Of a stretch of 50,858 bases of DNA, positions 5,828 to 50,858 are shown piece after piece. The position numbers and the translations under genes are program-made. The notes beneath the pieces were generated by a model, which saw only the letters and a list, made by a program, of their open reading frames with translations, did not search any database and was not told where the DNA came from. The stretch lies in IMG/VR virus record IMGVR_UViG_3300020215_000011; one strand, 5' to 3'. Position 1 is the first letter of the stretch. Every line of letters begins with the position of its first letter. The stretch comes from a virus.

Positions 5828-6048
5828 CACTGCGCCTCCCGGAGCGCCGCGACGCCCGCACACCGCGGACACCGTCCCCCGTACCCGTGCCCTGCCGGGA
5901 GACGGTGACACCGGAGGCAGAGGCGGGTGTTCTCGCTACTCTGTCGAACTACACTCAGCGGGGGGTCCGCGCGCTCCGTAACCCCGCGAAATGATGCACA
6001 CGGCTGAGTAATCCTCTTCTCGGATCGGACGTCGCTAGTGCCCGTCAT
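5827..6048 (-). CDS. Zinc-ribbon small protein (73 aa)
   Basis: ORF track; CLRC...CPRC; stop overlaps the next ATG (TGATG); start uncertain. Confidence 0.5.
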   Translation of the reverse strand: MTGTSDVRSEKRITQPCASFRGVTERADPPLSVVRQSSENTRLCLRCHRLPAGHGYGGRCPRCAGVAALREAQ

Positions 6049-7087
6049 TCCTCACCTTTTGATCGTTCGATTGCTCTGTCTGCGGCCCGTTACCCTGCGG
6101 GACAGTGAAGTCGTTACCGAGGTACCGATCCAGGCCGACGTACTGCTGCTGGCGGGCGGCGTGGAGCTCGTCCGGGACGATGTGGTCGTACGCCTGAATC
6201 GAGTGCGGATTGGCGTGGCCCATCATCCGCGAGCGGATCGACGGGTCGATCCCACCCCGGCGCCGGACGACTTCCATCGTGTGCCGGATCGTGTGAGCCC
6301 CGACGCGGAACCGCGTGATGCCGGCGCGCTTCGCGATCGCCGTCGCCAGGTGGGTCAGGCTCGAGGTCGTCATTGCCTCGCCGCGGCTGTTCGTCAGCAG
6401 CGGCTGATCGGGATGCACCCGCCCCTCGTTCAGCATCGTCGTGTGCAGCATCTCCACGACGGACGGCGACACCGGGATGTCCAGCTTCCGGCGGTTGCGC
6501 CCCCGGCCCTTCACGACGACGGACAGGTAATAGAGGCCGTTCACGTCGTGGAGATCCCCGACCTTCGCGCGCGTCAGTTCCAGCGACCGCAGGCCGGTGT
6601 CCACGAGCAGGGCGCGGGCGTTGCGCTGCCACGGCTCCGTCAACTCGACCGCGAGGAACGCCGCGAGTTCCTTCGGGTAGAGGTACTTCCGCTCGCGCTT
6701 GACCGCCTGCGGCCACTCAAACGCGGCCGTCGGGTTCGTCGTCATGTACGGCTTGCCCGTCCGGCTGTTCTTGTGCTGCATCCCGTACTTCGCCAGCGTG
6801 GACAGGGCGGCCAGCTTCGTGATGATGACGTTGATGCTGACCCCGAGTTTCGCCAGCTCCTCCGCGAACCCGAGGGCCGTGTCCTCGTTGAAGGACCGCA
6901 CCTCGTCCCGGAGCCCCGCCGTCTTCGTCACGTAGTCCACGAATTGGCGCCACGTGCGCTCGTACGAGCGGATCGTCAGCGGCGAGTAGTCCTTGTAGGT
7001 GAGCAGATGGGTCGAGCAGGCTTTGTAGAGGTCGGTAATCATGGCGTCGGGGGCCTCCAGGCCGTACGGGATGCGAACCCGCGGCAT
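6035..7087 (-). CDS. int: Tyrosine recombinase / phage integrase (350 aa)
   Basis: R (LRSLELTRAKV), HxxR (GAHTIRHT) and H..Y (GHANPHSIQAYDH) catalytic pattern; ATG 7087 with GAGAGGGG upstream; the 87-aa R-rich extension is rejected. Confidence 0.85.
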   Translation of the reverse strand: MPRVRIPYGLEAPDAMITDLYKACSTHLLTYKDYSPLTIRSYERTWRQFVDYVTKTAGLRDEVRSFNEDTALGFAEELAKLGVSINVIITKLAALSTLAKYGMQHKNSRTGKPYMTTNPTAAFEWPQAVKRERKYLYPKELAAFLAVELTEPWQRNARALLVDTGLRSLELTRAKVGDLHDVNGLYYLSVVVKGRGRNRRKLDIPVSPSVVEMLHTTMLNEGRVHPDQPLLTNSRGEAMTTSSLTHLATAIAKRAGITRFRVGAHTIRHTMEVVRRRGGIDPSIRSRMMGHANPHSIQAYDHIVPDELHAARQQQYVGLDRYLGNDFTVPQGNGPQTEQSNDQKVRNDGH

Positions 7088-7125
7088 GGTACCCCTCTCG
7101 CCCGGTTGCCGATTTACCAGCAGGC

Positions 7126-7329
7126 TCACGCCTGTCCCCTCATCCACCGCGCGAACGCCGCCACCTCTGCGTCGTCGGCAACGTCGGCGGCCTTGTCGCC
7201 TGCCATCGCGGCGAACAGCGCGTGGACACTCTCCTCGGCGATCACACGCCGGCCGTCCTCGAGCACGTGGCACAGCACGTCCACGCCGAACAAGCGGAAC
7301 GACGCCGACCGCACGGCCTGCGTGCTCAC
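7126..7329 (-). CDS. Hypothetical protein (67 aa)
   Basis: GTG start, GAAGGGG upstream, GTGA overlap. Confidence 0.5.
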   Translation of the reverse strand: MSTQAVRSASFRLFGVDVLCHVLEDGRRVIAEESVHALFAAMAGDKAADVADDAEVAAFARWMRGQA

Positions 7330-7478
7330 GCCCGCCCCTTCCGCGCATCGCGCTCGCGCCGCCACACCTCGAGCGGGTCCGCCGTCCCGCGCGCAGCGCG
7401 CCCCTTCGGCCGCTGAAGCCCCGCCAGCGTCACCACGGAGCAACTGGCGAGGACGAACAGCAGGAGGAGGTACTTCAT
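7326..7478 (-). CDS. Small lipoprotein (50 aa)
   Basis: MKYLLLLFVLASC lipobox; hairpin 7480-7494 1 nt upstream. Confidence 0.55.
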   Translation of the reverse strand: MKYLLLLFVLASCSVVTLAGLQRPKGRAARGTADPLEVWRRERDARKGRA

Positions 7479-31622: not shown

Positions 31623-31901
31623 GTGGGCGTGAAGTGCCGCTTCTGCCAAGACGACGAGGGCCACCCGATCACCGCGGCCTGCTTCAACGCCCAAGCCGAG
31701 TCGGTGCTGGCGACGCTCTCCGTCGTCGCGCTGGCACCGATGAACGCGGTTCCGCTGTCGTGGTCCGTGATGGCAGATTCAGGGGAGTCGGGGCGCTGGA
31801 TCGAGTTCCACGAGGGGCGGATCATCGACGCCCAGCCGCACGATGACGGCGTAATCGTCACGGTCGAGAACGGCAAGCAGTACATCATCCGTCCGACGTA
31901 G
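31623..31901 (+). CDS. Plus-strand small protein (92 aa; CRFC motif)
   Basis: Shares codon third positions with minus ORF 31613..31888. The minus product is S/T/P/W-rich like known shadow ORFs in that frame (e.g. 32354..32719, 33371..33886). The plus product has normal composition and a G-rich first codon position. Confidence 0.5.
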   Translation: MGVKCRFCQDDEGHPITAACFNAQAESVLATLSVVALAPMNAVPLSWSVMADSGESGRWIEFHEGRIIDAQPHDDGVIVTVENGKQYIIRPT

Positions 31902-34272
31902 CCCCCGCCAGTTCATCACTCGACGGGGCTTCCGTCTGCATCCCCGGCGCCTCTCCCGCGGACGGCTGGCTCCCCTGCCCCTGTCCGCTGTTGCCGAGCG
32001 ACGACGAGAAGTCGGCCGCCGCCTGCGCGAGCTGCTGCGCCTTCATCTGCTCCTGAATCAGGATGCTCACCTGCTGGAGATAGGCACGGAACAGCCCGGC
32101 CTGCGGCGCCGTCAGGAATCCGAAGTTGTCCGACTGCATGAACTTCTGAAGGTTCATCAGGTGCTCGGTCGGCTCCTCAAGCGGCGTGCCCACCGGCAGG
32201 GCGTTCGTCTCCATGATCGCGAGGATGGCCTCCTCGGCGGTGATCTTCGGCCCCGAGGTCACGCCGAGCGGCTTCTTGATGTACCGCGAGGGATCGAGCG
32301 TCGCCGCTTTGATGAGGTCGGTCTGCCAGTTGTAGTACTGCTCGGCGCTGACCGTGCCGACCTGGAAGGACAGCGGGTTGAACACCGCCATGCCGATCGC
32401 CTGGAGCGCCTGCTGCACGAGCCCCTTGTTCGTGTTCAGCAGCGTCGGCTGCCAGTCCCACGCGATCGGGATGGCGACGTCGAGCGGGTCCGCGATCTCG
32501 CGATACGGGTCCTCGTGCTCCTCCAGTTGCCCCGAGGCGAGGTACTGCTTGCGCTTCTTGAGGAACCGCCCGTTCAGGAGGTGGAACTGCTCCCACACCT
32601 GCCGGAGCCCCATGAACAGCCTGCGAAGAATTTGCTCCGGCATCGCCGCGCCCTGCTGGAGGATCGCCATCGTCGTCCCGAGCGTGCGGAGCGCCGACGC
32701 CTTGCCCTGCGGCACCTGACCACGCTGGATCGGGCCGATCTGCGTCACGTCGTCCATGAACTGCTTGGCGAGGCCCACCATGTTGAACCCGAACGTCTGG
32801 TCCGCGTGCGGCAGCGTCGGGAAGAACACGTCCTGCTGCGGGTTGTCGATCGGGTAGAGATCGCCCGGCCACAGCTTGATCGCTTCGGGCTTCATGCCAC
32901 TGGACGCCCGGTAGAACCCGAACGGACGGTTGGCGAGGTCGCCGTTGTCCGTCATCTGGTTCAACATGACGTGCAGGAAGTCGTGCAGCCCCTCCATCAC
33001 CTCGAGGAGCGAGATGCCGTAGATCTGGCCCTCGACGGGGATGTAACACGTATGCGACATGGGCCGGGTCAGCGGGATGCCGGGGGAGAGCTCCGTCAGG
33101 TACTTCGCGCGGATCAGGGTTTCGGATTCGCGGAGCACCCAGAAGATCACTTCTTCCTGGAGGCCGTCGTCATCGACGTCCCATCCCCCGAACCACTGGA
33201 TCAGCGTGAGCCACTGCTTGTCGTAGTCGTGGGGGCCGGACGGCTGGATGCCGGCGGCGTCTTCCTTCTGCTGCTTCGGCCCGTCGTCCGTCTCCCCGCC
33301 GTCGGTCGGGACGCGCCCCTCGGCCGCCGCCAGGATCTGCTTCCAGTCGTCGTCGGTGATGAGGTCGTAGATGCCGTCTTTCTCACCGCGCTTGAGTTCA
33401 TCGACGGTGATGCGGCTCATGCGCGCGACCCACGGGGCGCCCTTCGGATTGTGCGGCGTGACGGGCTGCGGGTTCTCGCAGCGCACCGGCACCACGACGT
33501 CCTCGAGGTCGTCCACGATGGCGGTGGGGCCATCGAACGTCGTCGCGTCCCAGACGGCGACGAGCTCCAGGCGTTCCTCGTCCTTCTCCCAGACGGTGAA
33601 GTCCACTTCCGTCCGCTGCTGGTCGTCGTTGACGAAGGCGCCCGCCCAGACGGTGCCGTGTTCGTTCTTCGCGACGAGTTCGGTGACCTGGGGGAACAGG
33701 TCAGGGATCGCCACGGCCATCGATTCGATCAGCGGCCGGTCGTCCTTGGGCAGGACCCGAACGTCGGTGAGTCGCGAAGAATGCTTGACCCACGGCTGGA
33801 AGCTGAAGACCGCGGGGTCCTTGCAGAACTGCGCGATGTACTTCTGGATGAACTGCTCGCCGTTGCCTTCCACGAACAGCTGGTAGTCGATCAGCTGATT
33901 GGCGGCCTCGGCCTTGTCGCGGAGATCCTTGCGCACCTTCGGCTCGAACGGCGGGCGAATGCCCATGACGGCGTTGAACAGGCCGGCCTCGACGCGCAGC
34001 TCGTTCGCCATCATCGCGGGATAGTGGTGATTGGAGCAGCCGTCCCACGGCGGGGACTCGCGCTGCGTCCAGCCGCGGAACTTGGCGTAGCGTTCCATGC
34101 GCTTGTCGAGCCACGTCTGGCGCTCGCCCATCGCGTCGTCCACTCGCTCGATGACGCCCTGCACGACGTCGGTGGCGTCGACCGACATGCGACGCTTGCG
34201 AAGCCTCGGGCCGGGCTCGGGCTTCTCGTCGGGAGCAGCGAGGTTCAGCGGGTTCGCGTAGTCGTCGGCCAT
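31885..34272 (-). CDS. Portal protein (795 aa)
   Basis: Large acidic protein downstream of terL; size and position. Confidence 0.75.
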   Translation of the reverse strand: MADDYANPLNLAAPDEKPEPGPRLRKRRMSVDATDVVQGVIERVDDAMGERQTWLDKRMERYAKFRGWTQRESPPWDGCSNHHYPAMMANELRVEAGLFNAVMGIRPPFEPKVRKDLRDKAEAANQLIDYQLFVEGNGEQFIQKYIAQFCKDPAVFSFQPWVKHSSRLTDVRVLPKDDRPLIESMAVAIPDLFPQVTELVAKNEHGTVWAGAFVNDDQQRTEVDFTVWEKDEERLELVAVWDATTFDGPTAIVDDLEDVVVPVRCENPQPVTPHNPKGAPWVARMSRITVDELKRGEKDGIYDLITDDDWKQILAAAEGRVPTDGGETDDGPKQQKEDAAGIQPSGPHDYDKQWLTLIQWFGGWDVDDDGLQEEVIFWVLRESETLIRAKYLTELSPGIPLTRPMSHTCYIPVEGQIYGISLLEVMEGLHDFLHVMLNQMTDNGDLANRPFGFYRASSGMKPEAIKLWPGDLYPIDNPQQDVFFPTLPHADQTFGFNMVGLAKQFMDDVTQIGPIQRGQVPQGKASALRTLGTTMAILQQGAAMPEQILRRLFMGLRQVWEQFHLLNGRFLKKRKQYLASGQLEEHEDPYREIADPLDVAIPIAWDWQPTLLNTNKGLVQQALQAIGMAVFNPLSFQVGTVSAEQYYNWQTDLIKAATLDPSRYIKKPLGVTSGPKITAEEAILAIMETNALPVGTPLEEPTEHLMNLQKFMQSDNFGFLTAPQAGLFRAYLQQVSILIQEQMKAQQLAQAAADFSSSLGNSGQGQGSQPSAGEAPGMQTEAPSSDELAGATSDG

Positions 34273-34875: not shown

Positions 34876-35183
34876 CGGAACACCCTCGTCATGGCTTCTC
34901 CGCAGCAGGACGGCGTGTGCCCCGTGAACGGCGGGCTGCCATCGCACGGCTCGAACCCGTTGAAGTAATGGCCGGGCTGGTGCCGGAACTCGTGGAGGAT
35001 GACGCGGTAGGCGCGCCCCCCACACTTCCGGCACGTCAGCCACGCATCGTGTTCGTGCCGCCCGGAACAGTGCTGGGCGCACGTAGGACCTTCCGGCGGC
35101 AGCGGAAGCGTGCGCGGCGCCGTCCCGGGCAGCACGAGGCGTTGCTTCTGCGCGAAGATCTGGTCCCAGCGTTCGTCGCTCAT
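34872..35183 (-). CDS. Cys/His-rich protein (103 aa)
   Basis: ORF track; ATGA overlap with the terL stop. Confidence 0.6.
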   Translation of the reverse strand: MSDERWDQIFAQKQRLVLPGTAPRTLPLPPEGPTCAQHCSGRHEHDAWLTCRKCGGRAYRVILHEFRHQPGHYFNGFEPCDGSPPFTGHTPSCCGEAMTRVFR

Positions 35184-36874
35184 CCGCGTCTCCGATGCTG
35201 GAACACCATCCCGCGCGTGTAGCCGGTGAACGACGGCCGGTCGAGCGCGAAGTAGCGGACGAGATCCGGGAAGTCCTTGTGACGGTCCCTAACCTTCTCC
35301 TTCGGCTCCTTGTCGCCGCCGCGCGTCCACTCGTCCCACGTCCAGTGGGTCATCCCGTAGATGAACTTCGGGCACGTGTTGAACACCGCGAACCGTGGAC
35401 GGCGGGTCCGGGGATCGGGACGCAGGAGTTCGTTGACCTGCGAGATGCCGGCGTTGATCTCGTCGTTCGCGAGATCGCAGCGGATGCCTTCTTGGTCGTA
35501 CTCCTTGCGGATCGTCCACCCGCGCTGCATCCGGTCGTTCGTCTCGGTGGCGATGTTCGGGTCCATCAACCGCTTCACCGGACGCATCCGATGGCGCTCC
35601 TCGAAGGAGCGGATTTCGCGCGCGACGTCCTTCGCGGTGCCCGTCGCCTCGAGCTCCCCGACCATGAACACGTCGTCTGACGGCGCCACCGCGAACCAGC
35701 CGATCGCGTCTGCCTTTCGAGGATGCGGGTCGATCACCATGACGACGGGCCAGCCGGCGGGAATCGGGAACGGCTCGATCACGTGCGAGAACTGCGAGAG
35801 ATCGTCGCCCTTGCACGTCGGGCACGACCCGTCGATGCCGAGCACGCGCTTCTGGCAGCGGTAGCACCACGTCGCGTAGGTGCGCTCGAACATCGAGTAC
35901 ACGACGCCCGAGAGATGGATGAACCGGCCGTAGAGTCGAACGGCCCGCTGCTCGTCGGTCAGTCGTTCCGCGATCGCCTGCACGTCCTCCGGAGAGAGGA
36001 TCGTGTTGCGCTCGGTGAACAACTGGATGGTGTCGATCTCCGGGTGCTGGTTCGGCCCCGGGAGTCCTGGTTCATAGATCTCGTCGAAGAACCACGCGGC
36101 ATCGACCTGGGCGGACCCGGCTTCGTCCGGGGGCGTGAACGCCGTGTAGAGCTGGCCGCGGACGTCGAGCGTGCGTAGCCGGTTTTCCCGGTAGATGTCC
36201 GAGGGTGGCAATTCGTCGTGGCCGACCCAGTGCAGCGAGGACCCCGCGAACGCCGAGAGGTCCTGGTCGTAGGACATCAGCTGAATCGTGGACGTGCCGC
36301 TGACGGAGTTGATGGAGCCGTCCGCCCCCCGCCAGTACGAGTCCACGCTGACGTGGAGGGTCCGATAGCGTTCGGAGTACGCCTTTTCCCACGACCCGCC
36401 GGCCAGACAGTGCCGGGGAATCCATCCCCAGTGACCGCGGCCGTCGTTCGGGTCGCCGACGCCGTTCCACTGATCCCAGCGCAGCTTCGGCTTGATGACG
36501 GGCTCGATCGTGTCCGTCAGCGAGTTGCACACGAGGCGGGCGCGGATCGGGGCGCGGATCTTCTCGCGCGGATACGTCCCCATCAGAGACACCGGGATGT
36601 GGCCCGTCGCCTGAATCGCCAGTTCCGCCAGCATCGTGTCCGTCTTGCTCGAGCGGTTGCCGCCGACGATGGCGACCTCGCGCTTCATGCTCGTGTGCGC
36701 CTTGAGCGCGTCGGGATTGCGGACCTGGTAGTAGGCGAGCTGCGTGCCCTTGCGGTCCTCCTGCAAGGCCTGGGTGGTCTGCATCAGGACCGTGCGGAAC
36801 CACGCCGGATTCTCCCGCGCCCTCGCGATCAGCTCGTCCTGCGAGAGCTCGGAGAGATCCTTGAGGTCGATCAC
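35180..36874 (-). CDS. terL: Terminase large subunit (564 aa)
   Basis: Walker A-like VGGNRSSKTDT, Walker B-like LHWVGHDELP, C-terminal nuclease-like acidic motifs; GTG in a GTGA overlap. Confidence 0.85.
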   Translation of the reverse strand: MIDLKDLSELSQDELIARARENPAWFRTVLMQTTQALQEDRKGTQLAYYQVRNPDALKAHTSMKREVAIVGGNRSSKTDTMLAELAIQATGHIPVSLMGTYPREKIRAPIRARLVCNSLTDTIEPVIKPKLRWDQWNGVGDPNDGRGHWGWIPRHCLAGGSWEKAYSERYRTLHVSVDSYWRGADGSINSVSGTSTIQLMSYDQDLSAFAGSSLHWVGHDELPPSDIYRENRLRTLDVRGQLYTAFTPPDEAGSAQVDAAWFFDEIYEPGLPGPNQHPEIDTIQLFTERNTILSPEDVQAIAERLTDEQRAVRLYGRFIHLSGVVYSMFERTYATWCYRCQKRVLGIDGSCPTCKGDDLSQFSHVIEPFPIPAGWPVVMVIDPHPRKADAIGWFAVAPSDDVFMVGELEATGTAKDVAREIRSFEERHRMRPVKRLMDPNIATETNDRMQRGWTIRKEYDQEGIRCDLANDEINAGISQVNELLRPDPRTRRPRFAVFNTCPKFIYGMTHWTWDEWTRGGDKEPKEKVRDRHKDFPDLVRYFALDRPSFTGYTRGMVFQHRRRG

Positions 36875-38148
36875 GCGGGCTGGTGCTTCAACTGTCCGAG
36901 GCGGCGACAGACCGCCATCCCGACCCGCATCAGCCCCTTGCCGACCACCGAGTCCCCGTGGGCCATCTCGCGCGTCCACGGCTCCGCCACGACCCACACG
37001 AGGCGGGTGACGACCGAGGACCGGCGCATCGCGCGCACGACGGTCGGCGCCCAGCGGTAGTAGCCGGCGAGGACGACGGGATCGACCGTGCGGCCGAACG
37101 CCTCGTCCGCCTTCCACGTCGCCTCATCGAGGTAGCCCTGGCGGTAGAGCTCCGTGCAGATGACGGTGGCCCCGCCGGCACCTCCCCCTCCGCCGCCCGC
37201 GGCCCCCCCGTCGCTCTCGTCGCCGCTGCCGCTCGGGCCCGCCGTCCCGGTCCCCGAAGACGTCCCACCGCCATCCGTTTCGTCGCCGCTCGGTGCCGGC
37301 CCGGTGCCGGTCGGCCCCATCCCCGTGTCTTCGCTGAAGGTGACCGGCGCGGTGGTCGTCGTGTCCGGCATCCCGCCGCGGACCCCTGACGAGAACAAGC
37401 CCGGCTGACCCTGAAGGCCCGTCACGGCGGTGGTCGGCGCCGCGGTGAACGACGGGTTCGACAGATCCCCGAAGGTCGGCGACGGGATGCCGGACTCACT
37501 CAGCGGCCCCGTCCCGAGCGCCCCGACCGCGATCCCGCTGCTGTTCGGCGTCGAGGTGGTCGTCGGAGACGTCGTGCCGCTCAGGAACCCCTCCAGCCCG
37601 TTCACGACGCCTTGCAGCCCGCTCACCGTCGCCTGGGACGCCGGGGGGGCCGGCCCGAACGCCCCGAGGCCGAAGTTCGCCAGGCTCGCGGCCAGCCCCA
37701 GTCCCGGCACCGCGGCGTTCGCGATCGTCCCGACGAGGCCGTTCGCCACCGTCGAGGGAATGCCGAACTGCGCGCCGAGCTGGGCCGCCGGGGTCGCGGA
37801 CGCGATCGTCCCCAGATCCCCGAGCAGACCGCCGGAGTTCCCGTGCCCGCCGGAGACCCCGGAGCCCGCGCCCGGCGCCGATGGAGCGCCCGCTTCTCCG
37901 GTTGGCCCGCCGGGGGTCCCTGGCGAATTGATCTGCCCGGTTACGGATTCGGCGTTGCCGATCGCCCCCTCAAAGAACCCGATGCCGGGGTTGTACGGGG
38001 CCGGGGACGCCGCCGGCATGAACGTGGACGGCTGCCCCGGAAACGCCGTGTCCGACCCCTGGACGCCCGGCAGCGTCACCGGCTGGCCTGACGGACGCCC
38101 GGGATAGGCAATGTCCAGCCCGGCCAGACTCAGCGGAGCCGTCAGCAT
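36871..38148 (-). CDS. Gly/Ser/Thr/Pro-rich low-complexity protein with a ~95-aa globular C-terminal domain (425 aa)
   Basis: Single ORF coupled to terS (TGATG) and terL (GTGA); G-rich first codon positions argue it is the true frame; C-terminus ..VICTELYRQGYLDEATWKADEAFGR.. Confidence 0.6.
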   Translation of the reverse strand: MLTAPLSLAGLDIAYPGRPSGQPVTLPGVQGSDTAFPGQPSTFMPAASPAPYNPGIGFFEGAIGNAESVTGQINSPGTPGGPTGEAGAPSAPGAGSGVSGGHGNSGGLLGDLGTIASATPAAQLGAQFGIPSTVANGLVGTIANAAVPGLGLAASLANFGLGAFGPAPPASQATVSGLQGVVNGLEGFLSGTTSPTTTSTPNSSGIAVGALGTGPLSESGIPSPTFGDLSNPSFTAAPTTAVTGLQGQPGLFSSGVRGGMPDTTTTAPVTFSEDTGMGPTGTGPAPSGDETDGGGTSSGTGTAGPSGSGDESDGGAAGGGGGGAGGATVICTELYRQGYLDEATWKADEAFGRTVDPVVLAGYYRWAPTVVRAMRRSSVVTRLVWVVAEPWTREMAHGDSVVGKGLMRVGMAVCRRLGQLKHQPA

Positions 38149-40988: not shown

Positions 40989-41176
40989 CAGCCGTAGCTC
41001 ACGATGAGTTCGGGTGAGGTCGAGGACAGGTGCGCGTCTAGGGACGCGATCGTGGCGTCCCGTTGCTCGGTCGTCGCCCCGTTCAGACCCATTCCGTCAG
41101 CCTCCACGAAGTCAATCCAACGGCAGCGGCGGGGAGCCCCAGTGTTCCAGCCGGCGCGGCGCAGCAGGGTCCTCAT
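40988..41176 (-). CDS. Hypothetical protein (62 aa)
   Basis: ATGA overlap. Confidence 0.5.
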   Translation of the reverse strand: MRTLLRRAGWNTGAPRRCRWIDFVEADGMGLNGATTEQRDATIASLDAHLSSTSPELIVSYG

Positions 41177-42495
41177 CGGTCCAGCACGGTCCGCATGGCG
41201 GTGATCCACGAGTCGAGACGCTGGCGCTGCGCGCGGGAGCCGGCCTTGAACGCGGACGCGCCGATCGTCCCGCCGCCGAGATGGACGTAGAACGGAATCG
41301 CCCGGTCATCGCACGCAACGTCGCAGGTATGCCCTCTGAAGGCGGCCTGATACAGCATGGTCGCCCGCCAGCCTGGTTCAACACTCTCGGCAACGTCGTA
41401 CTCCGGCATCTTCGGCGCGAGATTCATCGTGGCAAACGTAGCCACATCGAACAGCGTCCCGGCGGAATGACCGCGCTGGCTCCGCCGGCTCACGATCGCC
41501 GCCGCGGGCAATGGCTGCCGCAGGAGATAGGACAGCCAGCCGGCGCGGACGGGCAGCGCGTCGTCGTGCATGATGAAAACGTGCGAATATCCCGCAGCCC
41601 CGGCCCGATCGAGCGCGCCGCGCAGCATGCGGAGCGCGAGCGCGTTAGCCTCGCCGCCGCGTTCGTCCCACGGCCCGTGATCCAGCAGGAACACGTCGTG
41701 GGGGACGTCCTGCGTGAACCGCGCTATCGCATCGCGGGCGAGGTTCGCCAGCGCGCGCTCGCCTGAAGACGGGATCAGGATGGCGACACGCCTCGCCGCG
41801 GCCTTGATTTGCAGCGCCTCCAGCATGGCCGTAAGCGTGTCGTTCATCGCCACGTCGCACGCGCGGCCGGCAGCCGCAGCGGCCCTGGCGGCCGTCCCGA
41901 AGGATGCAGAGGTCGCGGCCGTGGCCGCGGCCGACGTGACGGCGGCGTTAATGGCCATGAAGACGGCGAGGGCGGGGTCAGGCGAGGTGACCACGTTCGC
42001 CGCCGCGATGGCCGCGTGAGCGGTTGCCGACCAGTAGCGTTCATAAAACGTCCTCCGTGCGGCCCACGCTCCGTGGGCCGCCGCGTCGAGATCCACCCGA
42101 CTAGCCTCGCCATGCCGGTACGCCTCCGCGGCCCGCAACACCTCATACGCGCGTCGGTCCACCGTGAGGCCGCGCGCCGCAGCCCGGTCCAGCGCCTGCG
42201 TCCCCACCACCAGCGCGAACGCGCGCAGCGTATCCGTGCAGTCGGCGGCCCAGAGCACCCGGCGCTCGCTCGCGCACACCTTGTCCTCGTCGCGCTCGAT
42301 CGCCCCTGACAGTTCCACGCGGGACACGACGCACGGCATTCCGGGCGGCGCATAGCGCAGCGCATCCAGGGCGCGCTCGCTGGCGTGTAGACCGCGCGCG
42401 CCCAAGGCTAGGGGCGGCAGCACGGTGTACGTAGCGACGTCGAGCGGCTGGCCATCGCGGAGTTTCCAGTTCGCGGCGAAATGCCAGCCGATCAT
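41173..42495 (-). CDS. Two-domain protein: unknown N-domain plus GT2-like glycosyltransferase C-domain (440 aa)
   Basis: ..VAILIPSSGER.. and ..FIMHDDALP.. (DxD-like) in the C-terminal half. Confidence 0.5.
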   Translation of the reverse strand: MIGWHFAANWKLRDGQPLDVATYTVLPPLALGARGLHASERALDALRYAPPGMPCVVSRVELSGAIERDEDKVCASERRVLWAADCTDTLRAFALVVGTQALDRAAARGLTVDRRAYEVLRAAEAYRHGEASRVDLDAAAHGAWAARRTFYERYWSATAHAAIAAANVVTSPDPALAVFMAINAAVTSAAATAATSASFGTAARAAAAAGRACDVAMNDTLTAMLEALQIKAAARRVAILIPSSGERALANLARDAIARFTQDVPHDVFLLDHGPWDERGGEANALALRMLRGALDRAGAAGYSHVFIMHDDALPVRAGWLSYLLRQPLPAAAIVSRRSQRGHSAGTLFDVATFATMNLAPKMPEYDVAESVEPGWRATMLYQAAFRGHTCDVACDDRAIPFYVHLGGGTIGASAFKAGSRAQRQRLDSWITAMRTVLDR

Positions 42496-43565
42496 CCGAC
42501 GAGCTCCGTGTAGACCGCCATCGTCCCGCGCACGCACCGCTCCCACCGGAAGTGGCGGTCGATCCGCTCGCGGGCCGCCTCGCCGAACAGGCGCCGCACC
42601 GGAGCGTGGTCGATCAGGAGTCGCAGCGCACGCACATAGTCGTCCTTCGTCCGGCAGACGAATCCCGCGTCGCCGACGAGCTCCGGTAGTGACCCCGCGT
42701 CCGAGGTCACAACCGGCAGCCCGGAGGACATGGCTTCCCCGACCGCTAGGCCGAAACCCTCCATCGACGACGGGAACACGAAGATGTCCGCGCGCTGATA
42801 CCACGCCGGCTTGTCCGCCTCCGGGATGTACCCGCTGCACGAGAAACCTTGCGCCTCGAGCATGGCGCGGTCCGGGCCGTCGCCCGCGATCACGAGCGAC
42901 GCGCTCGGGCGCTCGACCGCGCGCCACACGTCGAGAAGCAGGCCTAGGTTCTTTCTCGGCTTCAACCCGCCGAGGAACAGGACGCGGACTTTTCCGTCAT
43001 GCGGGACCTGCCGCGGCGTGAAGCGGCGATCGATCCCGTAAGGAACGACCCGCACGTGATCCGTCCTGAACCCTTCCGCCGCCATCTGGCGCCGAGCGAA
43101 CTCGCTGCCGACGATCACCCGGTCCACCAAGCGGACGACTTGCCGCTCGACCGGCCACGGCCCCGCGTCAAGGTGGTGGTGATGGGCCACGATGGGAACG
43201 GACCACCCATAGCGGCGCTTCGCGATCAAGCACGCCGGCCCCATGAACTTGAGGCTGTGGACGCGGAGCACATCGAACGGGTGGAGATGCCGGAGGGCCC
43301 GGGGAACGACGAACGGGGCGATCGTCCAGTGCAGTCCTCGCGCAACCGGAAATCGCGTCACAGCCCGCCCGAGGCTCGCAGGATGCGGCTTCCCGTGGGC
43401 CAGCAGGATCTTCTGCTGGGCTGGCAGGCGCGTCAGCAGATCGACCTCGTAGCGTTCGCCCCCGGAGTTCGTTTCCGGGTCGAGACCACAGTGGGGGGAA
43501 CAGACGACTATCAGGGGGGTCCCTCCGGCCGTCCGCCGCGCCCGTCGTCGTCTTCGTCCGTCCAC
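42492..43565 (-). CDS. GT4-family (GT-B) glycosyltransferase; true start probably near 43514
   Basis: ..FPSSMEGFGLAVGEAMSSGLPVVTSD.. EX7E motif; GC3 favours the upstream gene frame for 43514-43565; a CTGA junction lies at 43511-43514. Confidence 0.7.
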   Translation of the reverse strand: MDGRRRRRARRTAGGTPLIVVCSPHCGLDPETNSGGERYEVDLLTRLPAQQKILLAHGKPHPASLGRAVTRFPVARGLHWTIAPFVVPRALRHLHPFDVLRVHSLKFMGPACLIAKRRYGWSVPIVAHHHHLDAGPWPVERQVVRLVDRVIVGSEFARRQMAAEGFRTDHVRVVPYGIDRRFTPRQVPHDGKVRVLFLGGLKPRKNLGLLLDVWRAVERPSASLVIAGDGPDRAMLEAQGFSCSGYIPEADKPAWYQRADIFVFPSSMEGFGLAVGEAMSSGLPVVTSDAGSLPELVGDAGFVCRTKDDYVRALRLLIDHAPVRRLFGEAARERIDRHFRWERCVRGTMAVYTELVG

Positions 43566-45318: not shown

Positions 45319-45725
45319 CGCGCGCTCCTTTCGTTCCCTTCGGACACCGCGTCGAGGGCCGCCAGCGCGGCGACCAATTCGTCGGCGCCGACCGCTCGCG
45401 TCTCTCCGTCCGCGACCTTGCGCGCCAGCCCCGCGTACGTCGCATAGACCTGCGCCGCTTCCGCGACCGCCAAGAGCGCCTTGTACGTGTTCCGGGCGGT
45501 GGCGATGAACTCGGCGTTGGCTTTAGCCTCGGCCATTGGGATCGGCGGGGTGCCGGGTGTGCAGACCGCGCTACCAGCCGTGCGCCCGTACGTCTTGGCG
45601 ATCATCGCCAAGCCCTTCACCGATATGGCGACGTGATGCTGCCCGCTACCGCTCAGGTTTCCTGCGCGCCACTCGCCCGCCGTCGCGGCCGCTTCCAGGG
45701 CTTTCAGCCGGTCAAGGGCACTCAC
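45315..45725 (-). CDS. Ead/Ea22-like protein (136 aa), paralog 4
   Basis: ..GEWRAG.. ..EAKANAEFIATARNTYKALL.. Confidence 0.55.
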   Translation of the reverse strand: MSALDRLKALEAAATAGEWRAGNLSGSGQHHVAISVKGLAMIAKTYGRTAGSAVCTPGTPPIPMAEAKANAEFIATARNTYKALLAVAEAAQVYATYAGLARKVADGETRAVGADELVAALAALDAVSEGNERSAR

Positions 45726-46090
45726 GCGGGCGTCCCTTCGGGACGAGGGTCGCGGCGAACCAGCAGGTAGCCGCCGTAGTAGCCGTTGCTGTCGTTGCGA
45801 TAGTCGATCGTCGCCGTCCCGTGCTCGGTCGTGATCGCCAGCCCGTAGTACGCGCGCGTCGTGTGTTCGTCGGGATCACCGAGCTCCGGCATCTCCGCTT
45901 CCTGAACGTTCGTCACCGTGCCGCACAGCGCCGTCTCGTTGAGCACCTGCTCAACCCATGTGTTCGAGCATCAGTCCCCTTCGGGGATCAACTGCACCGC
46001 GCCCTCATCGGTCAGCAGCGTGATGCCGTCCGCGTCGATCGTGACTTCACGAATCGTCATGCCCACGAGCGTGTTGAGATCGCTACGCAT
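45722..46090 (-). CDS. 122-codon gene interrupted by an in-frame TGA (45971-45973) at codon 40
   Basis: ATG 46090 (GAGGGAG upstream) ...LIPEGD-TGA-CSNTWVEQVLNETALCG...NDSNGYYGGYLLV.. all in one frame; ends in a GTGA overlap. Confidence 0.5.
45938..45955 (-). other. Perfect 7-bp hairpin GUUGAGC-AGGU-GCUCAAC, 15 nt 3' of the in-frame UGA
   Basis: Read directly; the loop contains the GTG 45946 restart candidate. Confidence 0.8.
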
Positions 46091-46325
46091 AGTTCGCGTC
46101 TCCCTCGGGTGAGTTGTTCACTTCGCGCCGCCGGTCCCCGCCGAGGCGGCCACGCCCGTCCTGCACCCCGTACAGCCGGAGGAGCCGCACGAAGTACGTG
46201 CGCTGCATCCCGAGCGATGCGGCCGCGCGCGTGCGATGCCCGTCGTGCGCGGCCAGCGCCTCCGCCAGCAGATCGCGCTTGAAGGCGAGCACCCGGCGCT
46301 CGTAGGCGTTGATACCAGGCGTCAT
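46083..46325 (-). CDS. Fis-type HTH DNA-binding protein (80 aa; possible GTG 46517 extension)
   Basis: ..RDLLAEALAAHDGHRTRAAASLGMQRTYFVRLLRLYG.. matches the Fis/NtrC C-terminal HTH pattern. Confidence 0.6.
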   Translation of the reverse strand: MTPGINAYERRVLAFKRDLLAEALAAHDGHRTRAAASLGMQRTYFVRLLRLYGVQDGRGRLGGDRRREVNNSPEGDANYA

Positions 46326-50712: not shown

Positions 50713-50858
50713 GCGATCCTCACCGCGCAGAAGTCACACTCGCGCGTCCCCGGCGGGACCAGGACGCGGGCCAGCCGGACCAGCGCGGCCCCCAGCCGGA
50801 GGTCGTGGGCGCAGTCCGCGCACAGCGTCGCCTCCGGGGAGCGATACACCGGGACCAG
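50709..50858 (-). CDS. Same junction-spanning zinc-ribbon gene, 3' part (5'-truncated by window end)
   Basis: Stop TGA 50709-50711 overlaps the GTG start of the 50443..50712 gene (GTGA). Confidence 0.6.
   Translation of the reverse strand: MVPVYRSPEATLCADCAHDLRLGAALVRLARVLVPPGTRECDFCAVRIA
50732..50858. repeat. Terminal direct repeat, right copy (identical to 1..127)
   Basis: Read directly; 127 nt is also a common assembler k-mer overlap for circular contigs. Confidence 0.95.

Follow-up and report, generated by a model that had tools for sequence, protein, structure and literature searches.

In E. coli fdhF, an in-frame UGA occupies a position at which homologs encode Cys, and a stem-loop lies immediately downstream of it within the coding sequence. 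We describe here a gene with the same two features on IMG/VR virus record IMGVR_UViG_3300020215_000011, a stretch of 50,858 nucleotides that was analysed over its whole length and is referred to below as the window. The gene encodes a protein of the DUF7448 family. Unlike fdhF it is borne by a phage and not by a cell, its protein family is unrelated, and binding of its hairpin by SelB is putative. The UGA and the hairpin recur in diverged relatives, and comparison of these sequences makes it probable, in our estimation, that selenocysteine (Sec) is inserted at residue 40 of the 122-residue protein under the direction of a selenocysteine insertion sequence (SECIS), by SelB and tRNA-Sec of the host. 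The mechanism would be the known bacterial one; it is the carrier, a phage, that is unusual.

Among viruses, selenoproteins have been described in molluscum contagiosum virus (a GPx1 homolog) and fowlpox virus (a GPx4 homolog); both use Sec machinery of the host only, and the fowlpox SECIS is likewise situated in the coding region (PMC8310308, PMC1802603). These poxviruses are eukaryotic viruses with eukaryotic SECIS elements and host-captured genes, whereas the gene described here belongs to a bacteriophage, has a bacterial-type hairpin and encodes a member of a viral protein family. A 2021 review of recoding lists these two poxviruses only among viruses (PMC8310308), the BSepDB paper does not mention phages, and a marine metagenome survey found known selenoprotein families to be nearly absent from viral sequences. 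Our literature search returned no report of a phage-encoded selenoprotein, although absence there does not prove that none exists.

An in-frame TGA in a DUF7448 gene

On the minus strand of the window, translation from ATG 46090 meets a TGA at 45973-45971 after 39 codons; beyond it the frame stays open for 82 further codons, up to a second TGA at 45724-45722, which overlaps the GTG start of the next gene (GTGA). The frame reads MRSDLNTLVGMTIREVTIDADGITLLTDEGAVQLIPEGD before the in-frame TGA and CSNTWVEQVLNETALCG...YRNDSNGYYGGYLLV... past it. The initial annotation, made from the letters of the window, had pointed to this frame and to a perfect 7-bp hairpin at 45955-45938, 15 nt past the TGA; when the minus strand was re-read the hairpin was present, and all of the sequence statements and coordinates given there proved correct. 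The parts of the locus are as follows.

45722..46090, minus strand: complete DUF7448 gene as one open reading frame (ORF), with 122 sense codons, the UGA being codon 40
46100..46106, minus strand: Shine-Dalgarno (SD)-like GAGGGAG, 9 nt upstream of ATG 46090, serving the N-terminal part and thereby the whole gene
45971..45973, minus strand: in-frame UGA, candidate selenocysteine codon, aligned with the first Cys of CC(S)xxWxE, an invariant motif
45938..45955, minus strand: hairpin GUUGAGC-AGGU-GCUCAAC, perfect 7 bp, candidate SECIS apical stem-loop
45936..45958, minus strand: 23-nt block TGGGTTGAGCAGGTGCTCAACGA, from a three-way nucleotide alignment of the window with the relatives L001 and L173
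45944..45946, minus strand: GTG in the hairpin loop, where gene callers begin the 74-aa fragment P0001, with a weak GAG upstream

The read-through product is one DUF7448 domain (PF24240; residues 7-108, E=5.6e-18, 65.7 bits with a cut-off of 27). This match spans the TGA and covers positions 2-101 of the 104 in the model; the 74-aa C-terminal piece by itself scores 32.5 bits against the same model. The joined product also matches phrog_2650 (PHROG 2650; E=3.3e-19). At E<=0.001 the databases contain 3149 members of the family; homologs are about 120 aa long, each encoded by a single ORF, and have the motifs GDCCSxTWIE and RNDSNGYYGG. The initial annotation had given GDCCS.SW and SNGYYGG as motifs of such proteins and had proposed a check for single-ORF homologs with Cys at the TGA column, and protein searches and alignments bear out both points: the two Cys of the Cys-Cys (CC) pair are invariant in a 120-sequence alignment, and the TGA is aligned with the first of them (C40). 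The window product has the family-invariant CCS..W.E, YYG and R.N.SNGYYGG, and only its first C is encoded by TGA.

At the DNA level the Cys column is TGT or TGC in ~90 loci from IMG/VR and GTDB genomes, and 122 of 129 database proteins have CC there. The first Cys is not absolutely indispensable, because rare members deviate from CC: L022 has Met in its place (ENMCSETW), P0070 and P0079 have an insertion in the motif (EGCSHLDGTSYTW), P0116 has a single Cys (GDCSSETW) and P0124 reads C-L-A-C. Genes with Cys at this column (Cys forms) are present in isolated Mycobacterium, Streptomyces, Salmonella, E. coli, Providencia and Pseudomonas phages, where they are annotated as hypothetical. They share with the window gene the domain, its motifs (CCSxxWxE, YYG and RNDSNGYYGG) and an early or DNA-metabolism neighbourhood; in characterised genomes all are Cys-Cys, whereas this gene is UGA-Cys. 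One Cys-form gene, L040 (IMGVR_UViG_3300012927_000010, ~3200), has an in-frame stop elsewhere, at a non-conserved place (..VSEVE*IHEEQ..), and may be a pseudogene or another recoding event.

Public gene calls divide the window gene into a 39-aa ORF (46090-45971) and a 74-aa ORF (45946-45722). The second begins at GTG 45946, the first possible restart, which lies 8 codons (24 nt) past the TGA and has no real SD; the lack of an SD had been remarked on in the initial annotation, and a weak GAG is the most that we find. This start is most likely an annotation artefact and no real start. For all of the relatives with TGA at the Cys column (TGA forms) the public calls consist of a 39-44-aa ORF and a 52-80-aa ORF, the second with an arbitrary start. 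The splitting is a systematic annotation artefact in L001, L004, L119-L121, L128, L166-L173 and the window, and it conceals these genes from protein databases.

The TGA is kept at the same column in relatives

TGA is found at the Cys column in 11 distinct sequences from soil, groundwater and IMG/VR, with amino-acid identities of about 45-72%; some 200 other sequences inspected have TGT or TGC there. These are the window (=L002/L003), L001, L173, L004, L172, L120, L119 (=L166-168), L121, L169-171, L128 (=L132) and L103. A first protein search gave three short C-terminal fragments (P0001, P0002 and P0014) whose contigs are alike, with a 39-44-aa ORF, TGA at the Cys column and the rest of the domain in frame. 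A search with the DNA pattern TGA-TGY-Ser-N6-TGG ... AAYGGNTAYTAYGG added L103 in IMG/VR and L119, L120, L121 and L128 (=L132) in metagenomes; with TAA or TAG in place of TGA, the pattern retrieved no member of the family from IMG/VR. A third protein search, using a profile of the C-terminal fragments, returned 12 further fragments; the four of them read at the DNA level, P0132, P0134, P0136 and P0140 (L166-L173), all have TGA at the Cys column.

Independent assemblies and samples show the same TGA. L003 matches the window exactly and L002 has a single difference from it in 6225 nt; L128 and L132, from replicate samples, both have the TGA, as does the P0136 phage, which is ~47.8 kb long and lies on 13 contigs, one of them at 81x coverage. 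A private nonsense mutation, which the initial annotation had offered as an alternative, and a sequencing error are both ruled out by these independent assemblies together with conservation of the TGA in diverged relatives.

Two ORFs are annotated by gene callers in every assembly, and a GTG stands 8 codons past the stop; these are the grounds for regarding the gene as split or decaying, that is, as one in which a nonsense mutation has made two ORFs that are translated separately, with restart at GTG 45946, or are being lost. Such a history does not explain why the stop should be at one column in 11 sequences with identity down to about 45%, nor why it should always be TGA, as it is in 9 of 9 C-terminal fragments that were sampled irrespective of stop type and read at the DNA level (TAA or TAG, 0). 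The reading frame of the TGA forms is open on both sides of the TGA, with no other stops or frameshifts, and both halves match the family profile. Residues L8, G10 and I13 before the stop and C41, S42, W45 and E47 after it are invariant among TGA forms, and the latter four fall between the stop and any restart. No restart is conserved, because the first usable start past the TGA varies in position among relatives, from about 5 to about 30 codons downstream. A split gene with restart at the GTG, also raised in the initial annotation, is thus a very improbable account of this locus.

A neighbour-joining tree was built from 220 sequences. The seven TGA forms included besides L103 lie together with 23 Cys forms in a subclade of 30 leaves, and L103 is located in a distant subclade, surrounded by Cys forms. 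Because L103 and the other TGA forms lie in separate subclades, the tree suggests at least two Cys/Sec switches, and possibly more, although so short a protein (120 residues) gives a weakly resolved tree.

A stem-loop downstream of the UGA

The window hairpin starts 15 nt past the TGA, and its apical loop is 22 nt past the UGA. For comparison among relatives contiguous-stem length was adopted as the discriminator; by minimum free energy (MFE) the TGA forms rank high, but GC-rich Cys forms overlap with them. A contiguous stem scoring >=7, with its start 11-21 nt from the UGA's first base, is present in 8/8 TGA forms scored and an equivalent stem in 4/84 distinct Cys forms (Fisher p=5e-9, with kinship among sequences ignored). 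L097, L091, L045 and L083 are Cys forms with stem scores of 7 or more. Three TGA forms found later carry the same stems, and the four nearest Cys relatives with DNA read, L161 among them, have stem scores of 4-6.5. The hairpin, whose conservation the initial annotation had proposed as a check, is thus present in all TGA-carrying relatives scored or read and rare in Cys forms. The stems are of five designs, which use different registers and shifted pairing partners.

Stem design 1, GUUGAGC/GCUCAAC: window, L001, L173
Stem design 2, UUGAGGA/UCCUCAA: L004, L172, L120
Stem design 3, GAGGAUC/GAUCCUC: L119, L121, L169
Stem design 4, CUGGAUCG/CGAUCCAG: L128
Stem design 5, AAGUUGGAUA/UAUUCAACUU: L103

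In L128, the Asp-Pro codons pair with the Trp-Ile codons and not with the Glu-Asp codons, such that the hairpin is retained despite a change of partner. Synonymous-codon shuffles give p=0.001-0.26 per sequence and ~1e-6 when combined (Fisher's method, by hand, relatedness ignored).

In the geometry used by bSECISearch-type predictors, the loop is 16-37 nt from the UGA and 3-14 nt in size, and dG is <= -7.5 kcal/mol. The eight TGA forms folded have the apical loop 18-25 nt from the UGA and dG of -10.8 to -16.2 kcal/mol, with loops of 4-7 nt, or up to about 12 nt in alternative folds, and 8/8 fit this geometry (with a chance baseline of 8% for the window hairpin). We folded the fdhF SECIS by the same procedure, after confirming its sequence in E. 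coli records under fdhF, 5413 of which match it at 100% identity. It has a GGUC loop 18 nt past the UGA and dG of -14.2 kcal/mol, as against 18-25 nt and -10.8 to -16.2 kcal/mol for the phage forms. The window loop AGGU and the fdhF loop GGUC share GGU, and both sequences read GCAGGU. The determinants of the fdhF element include a bulged U and G23/U24, and these are not reproduced in all of the phage relatives. The whole window has no Rfam match at gathering thresholds, which is uninformative in that no general bacterial SECIS family surfaced in the scans, and at permissive E-values nothing was found around the hairpin or around the integrase.

Nucleotide conservation among the TGA forms is concentrated in the same region. 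Identity between pairs of TGA forms is highest in the 45-60 nt that directly follow the TGA, at 30/30 and 29/30 in 30-nt windows, and elsewhere is ~60-70%. Within the 23-nt block every position is invariant in the window, L001 and L173, synonymous sites included, and the flanks diverge at synonymous sites. Where amino acids are identical between two TGA forms, the identical-codon fraction is 0.71 after the TGA versus 0.56 in a control motif; for Cys-Cys pairs the corresponding values are 0.38 after the Cys column and 0.44 in the control motif.

Genetic code of the window

Phages in which stop codons are recoded and bacteria using codes 4/25 exist, and reassignment of UGA to Trp or Gly in the host or the phage would also give a full-length product. 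Like the gene described here, stop-codon-recoded phages read a stop codon as sense in phage genes; they do so by genome-wide UAG/UGA reassignment with suppressor tRNAs, whereas here it is one codon in one gene, with no suppressor tRNA. TGA terminates 31/43 predicted genes in the window, in keeping with the opinion of the initial annotation that TGA is an ordinary stop and that global reassignment is unlikely. A scan of the window for further in-frame TGAs, based on GC content at third codon positions, found antisense shadows and ordinary gene ends and none that was credible, and a tRNA scan found no tRNA gene on the window. The ORFs of L103, a low-GC relative, do not lengthen under code 4, and the residue aligned with the TGA is Cys, not Trp or Gly. 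With the recurrence of the TGA in independent assemblies, reassignment and sequencing or assembly error are effectively refuted.

Scans of all TGA-form loci gave tRNA genes in only two related phages: tRNA-Ala(UGC) in L166 (13623-13697, minus strand) and tRNA-His(GUG) in L169 (18533-18607, minus strand), the same as in L171 (10070-10144, minus strand). Neither is a tRNA-Sec or a suppressor.

Selenocysteine insertion or read-through

The initial annotation had proposed Sec in place of the first Cys of the pair and a SECIS-like role for the downstream hairpin, and the 11 TGA sequences support this. For a new selenoprotein family, the computational criteria set out in PMC1976440 are an in-frame TGA, at least two Cys homologs, a downstream stem-loop, and two or more distinct sequences in which the TGA is conserved. 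This gene has all of these, and because of this we read it as encoding a selenoprotein borne by a phage.

The events would be as follows. The intra-ORF hairpin 15 nt past the UGA would serve as a bacterial-type SECIS in a Sec-decoding host, bringing SelB-GTP-Sec-tRNA(Sec) to a ribosome with the UGA in its A site, in competition with release factor 2 (RF2), and translation would then run on to the stop at 45722. The product would have a vicinal Sec40-Cys41 pair instead of the Cys-Cys of the family; without selenium or SelB a 39-residue peptide would be made. The phage would contribute the cis element only, and the host the tRNA and enzymes. We infer from the sequence comparisons that the residue entering at the UGA would be Sec over another amino acid, that SelB would bind the hairpin and that the host would be competent for Sec decoding.

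Several results weigh against this interpretation. The window hairpin alone is not statistically unusual: on this strand, with 68% GC, ~8% of positions have a stem as good in the same offset range, 45920-45985 does not fold to a better MFE than its shuffles do (z=+0.45), and the synonymous-codon shuffle of the window hairpin gives p=0.06. By MFE, several GC-rich Cys forms are as stable as TGA forms, and a close Cys form, L161, has an imperfect hairpin of -18 kcal/mol in the same place. In the bSECISearch consensus, a G stands among the first two apical-loop positions. Loop sequences of the TGA forms are heterogeneous and have this G in 5/8 MFE structures; the window loop AGGU has it, and L004, L120 and L128 have it only under alternative loop definitions, or never. 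TGA forms come from one subclade in 10 of 11 cases. Neither the window nor the examined parts of related contigs yielded a tRNA-Sec or other Sec gene, and the large terminase is only ~25% identical to that of any isolated phage. What lifts the observation far above chance is that TGA plus hairpin recur in relatives.

The L161 gene (54-407 of GCA_900206355.1 OBEQ010004798.1) reads TGT TGT at the Cys pair, with its imperfect hairpin right after the CC codons. This hairpin could be a SECIS relic or a pre-adaptation.

The main rival of Sec insertion is read-through without Sec, in which a near-cognate tRNA (Trp or Cys) decodes the UGA at low frequency, the hairpin perhaps helping; it predicts a short 39-aa product and little full-length protein. 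Of the stops in bacteria UGA is the leakiest, and its read-through can be stimulated by structures downstream. Computation is blind to which amino acid enters, and both the heterogeneity of the loops and the lack of Sec machinery in scans of the window and related contigs count on this side as well. However, simple leakiness does not account for a UGA placed precisely at a Cys that is invariant and presumably catalytic, nor for its recurrence at that column in two separate subfamilies (L103 versus the rest), and the loop distance of 18-25 nt agrees with that of a validated SECIS. The base directly 3' of the in-frame stop is always U, the next codon being UGY, and U after a stop is a strong RF2 context and not a leaky one. 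A Sec/Cys pair at one column is, furthermore, the classic signature of a selenoprotein (PMC1976440). We consider read-through of this kind unlikely, albeit less so than a split gene, and favour Sec insertion.

Genome context

Nucleotides 1-127 of the window are repeated exactly at 50732-50858, and because of this terminal 127-nt repeat (assembly overlap) the genome is circular or terminally redundant and about 50.7 kb long. Its integrase, portal, large terminase, tail fibre and amidase genes are those of a temperate tailed phage, and 39 of the 43 predicted genes are on the minus strand. The DUF7448 gene is within an early or DNA-metabolism block, with genes for an N6/N4 DNA methyltransferase and an HTH_8 protein upstream of it and small ORFs without assigned function and a family-4 glycosyltransferase downstream. 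In other phages, Cys forms adjoin genes for primase/helicase, PD-(D/E)XK nuclease and AAA proteins.

6035-7348, minus strand: integrase
31885-34272, minus strand: portal
35180-37117, minus strand: large terminase
41173-42927, minus strand: 584-aa protein with a DUF7666 domain, adjoining the family-4 glycosyltransferase
42492-43565, minus strand: family-4 glycosyltransferase, also matching Pfam 'GT4-conflict' (conflict systems), a few genes downstream of the DUF7448 gene

The glycosyltransferase and the DUF7666 protein may form a DNA- or surface-modification module. Assignment of a host from the large terminase was rejected, as identities of ~25% to Arthrobacter, Microbacterium and Xylella phages are uninformative.

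Structure and possible function of DUF7448

A structural model was built with AlphaFold2 from P0121, a close full-length Cys homolog (54% identity). The model is confident (predicted local distance difference test 89.7; predicted template modelling score 0.79) and all-beta, with the CC pair in the loop joining strands 3 and 4. Comparison of the model with the PDB gave nothing significant, the best being the MutM N-terminal domain (E=0.03; template modelling (TM) score 0.3), the family profile matched no solved structure among PDB sequences, and PADLOC gave no match. Matches of the model in BFVD are solely to DUF7448 or uncharacterised proteins. They include proteins of the giant viruses Acanthamoeba polyphaga mimivirus, Tupanvirus, Hokovirus and Pithovirus (TM 0.6-0.7), and the distribution of DUF7448 among viruses is unusually wide for a domain of unknown function. 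Our literature search found no paper naming DUF7448.

Sec normally takes the place of catalytic redox cysteines, and the first Cys of the CC motif in this virus-wide domain is therefore probably redox-active or nucleophilic. A vicinal Cys-Sec redox centre is found in mammalian thioredoxin reductase, at the C-terminal GCUG. Adjacent Cys and Sec would be common to the two proteins and, by analogy only, could form an eight-membered selenenylsulfide ring. The order in thioredoxin reductase is C-U, on a flexible C-terminal tail, whereas here it would be U-C, in an internal loop between beta strands; the fold of thioredoxin reductase is unrelated to the small all-beta DUF7448 domain, and a redox role for the latter is putative.

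Implications

If Sec is inserted here, the gene would represent a new selenoprotein family, and Sec recoding would be extended to bacteriophages. We are inclined, if only slightly, to a broader view in which DUF7448 would be the first phage-encoded selenoprotein family, borne by temperate phages of soil and groundwater bacteria, with its own SECIS, host SelB and tRNA-Sec, a catalytic redox Sec, a restriction to Sec-decoding hosts and selenium-dependent expression. Sec insertion would also expose a systematic annotation error, public copies of the gene being split into two ORFs. It would give a first functional handle on DUF7448, a domain whose fold has been matched in viruses only; the cysteines that Sec replaces are almost always catalytic redox ones, and the CC motif would therefore be a testable active site. 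Because such phages would need Sec-competent hosts, the UGA would be a host-range marker, and a domain common to thousands of phages and giant viruses would, in some of its members, carry Sec beside Cys.

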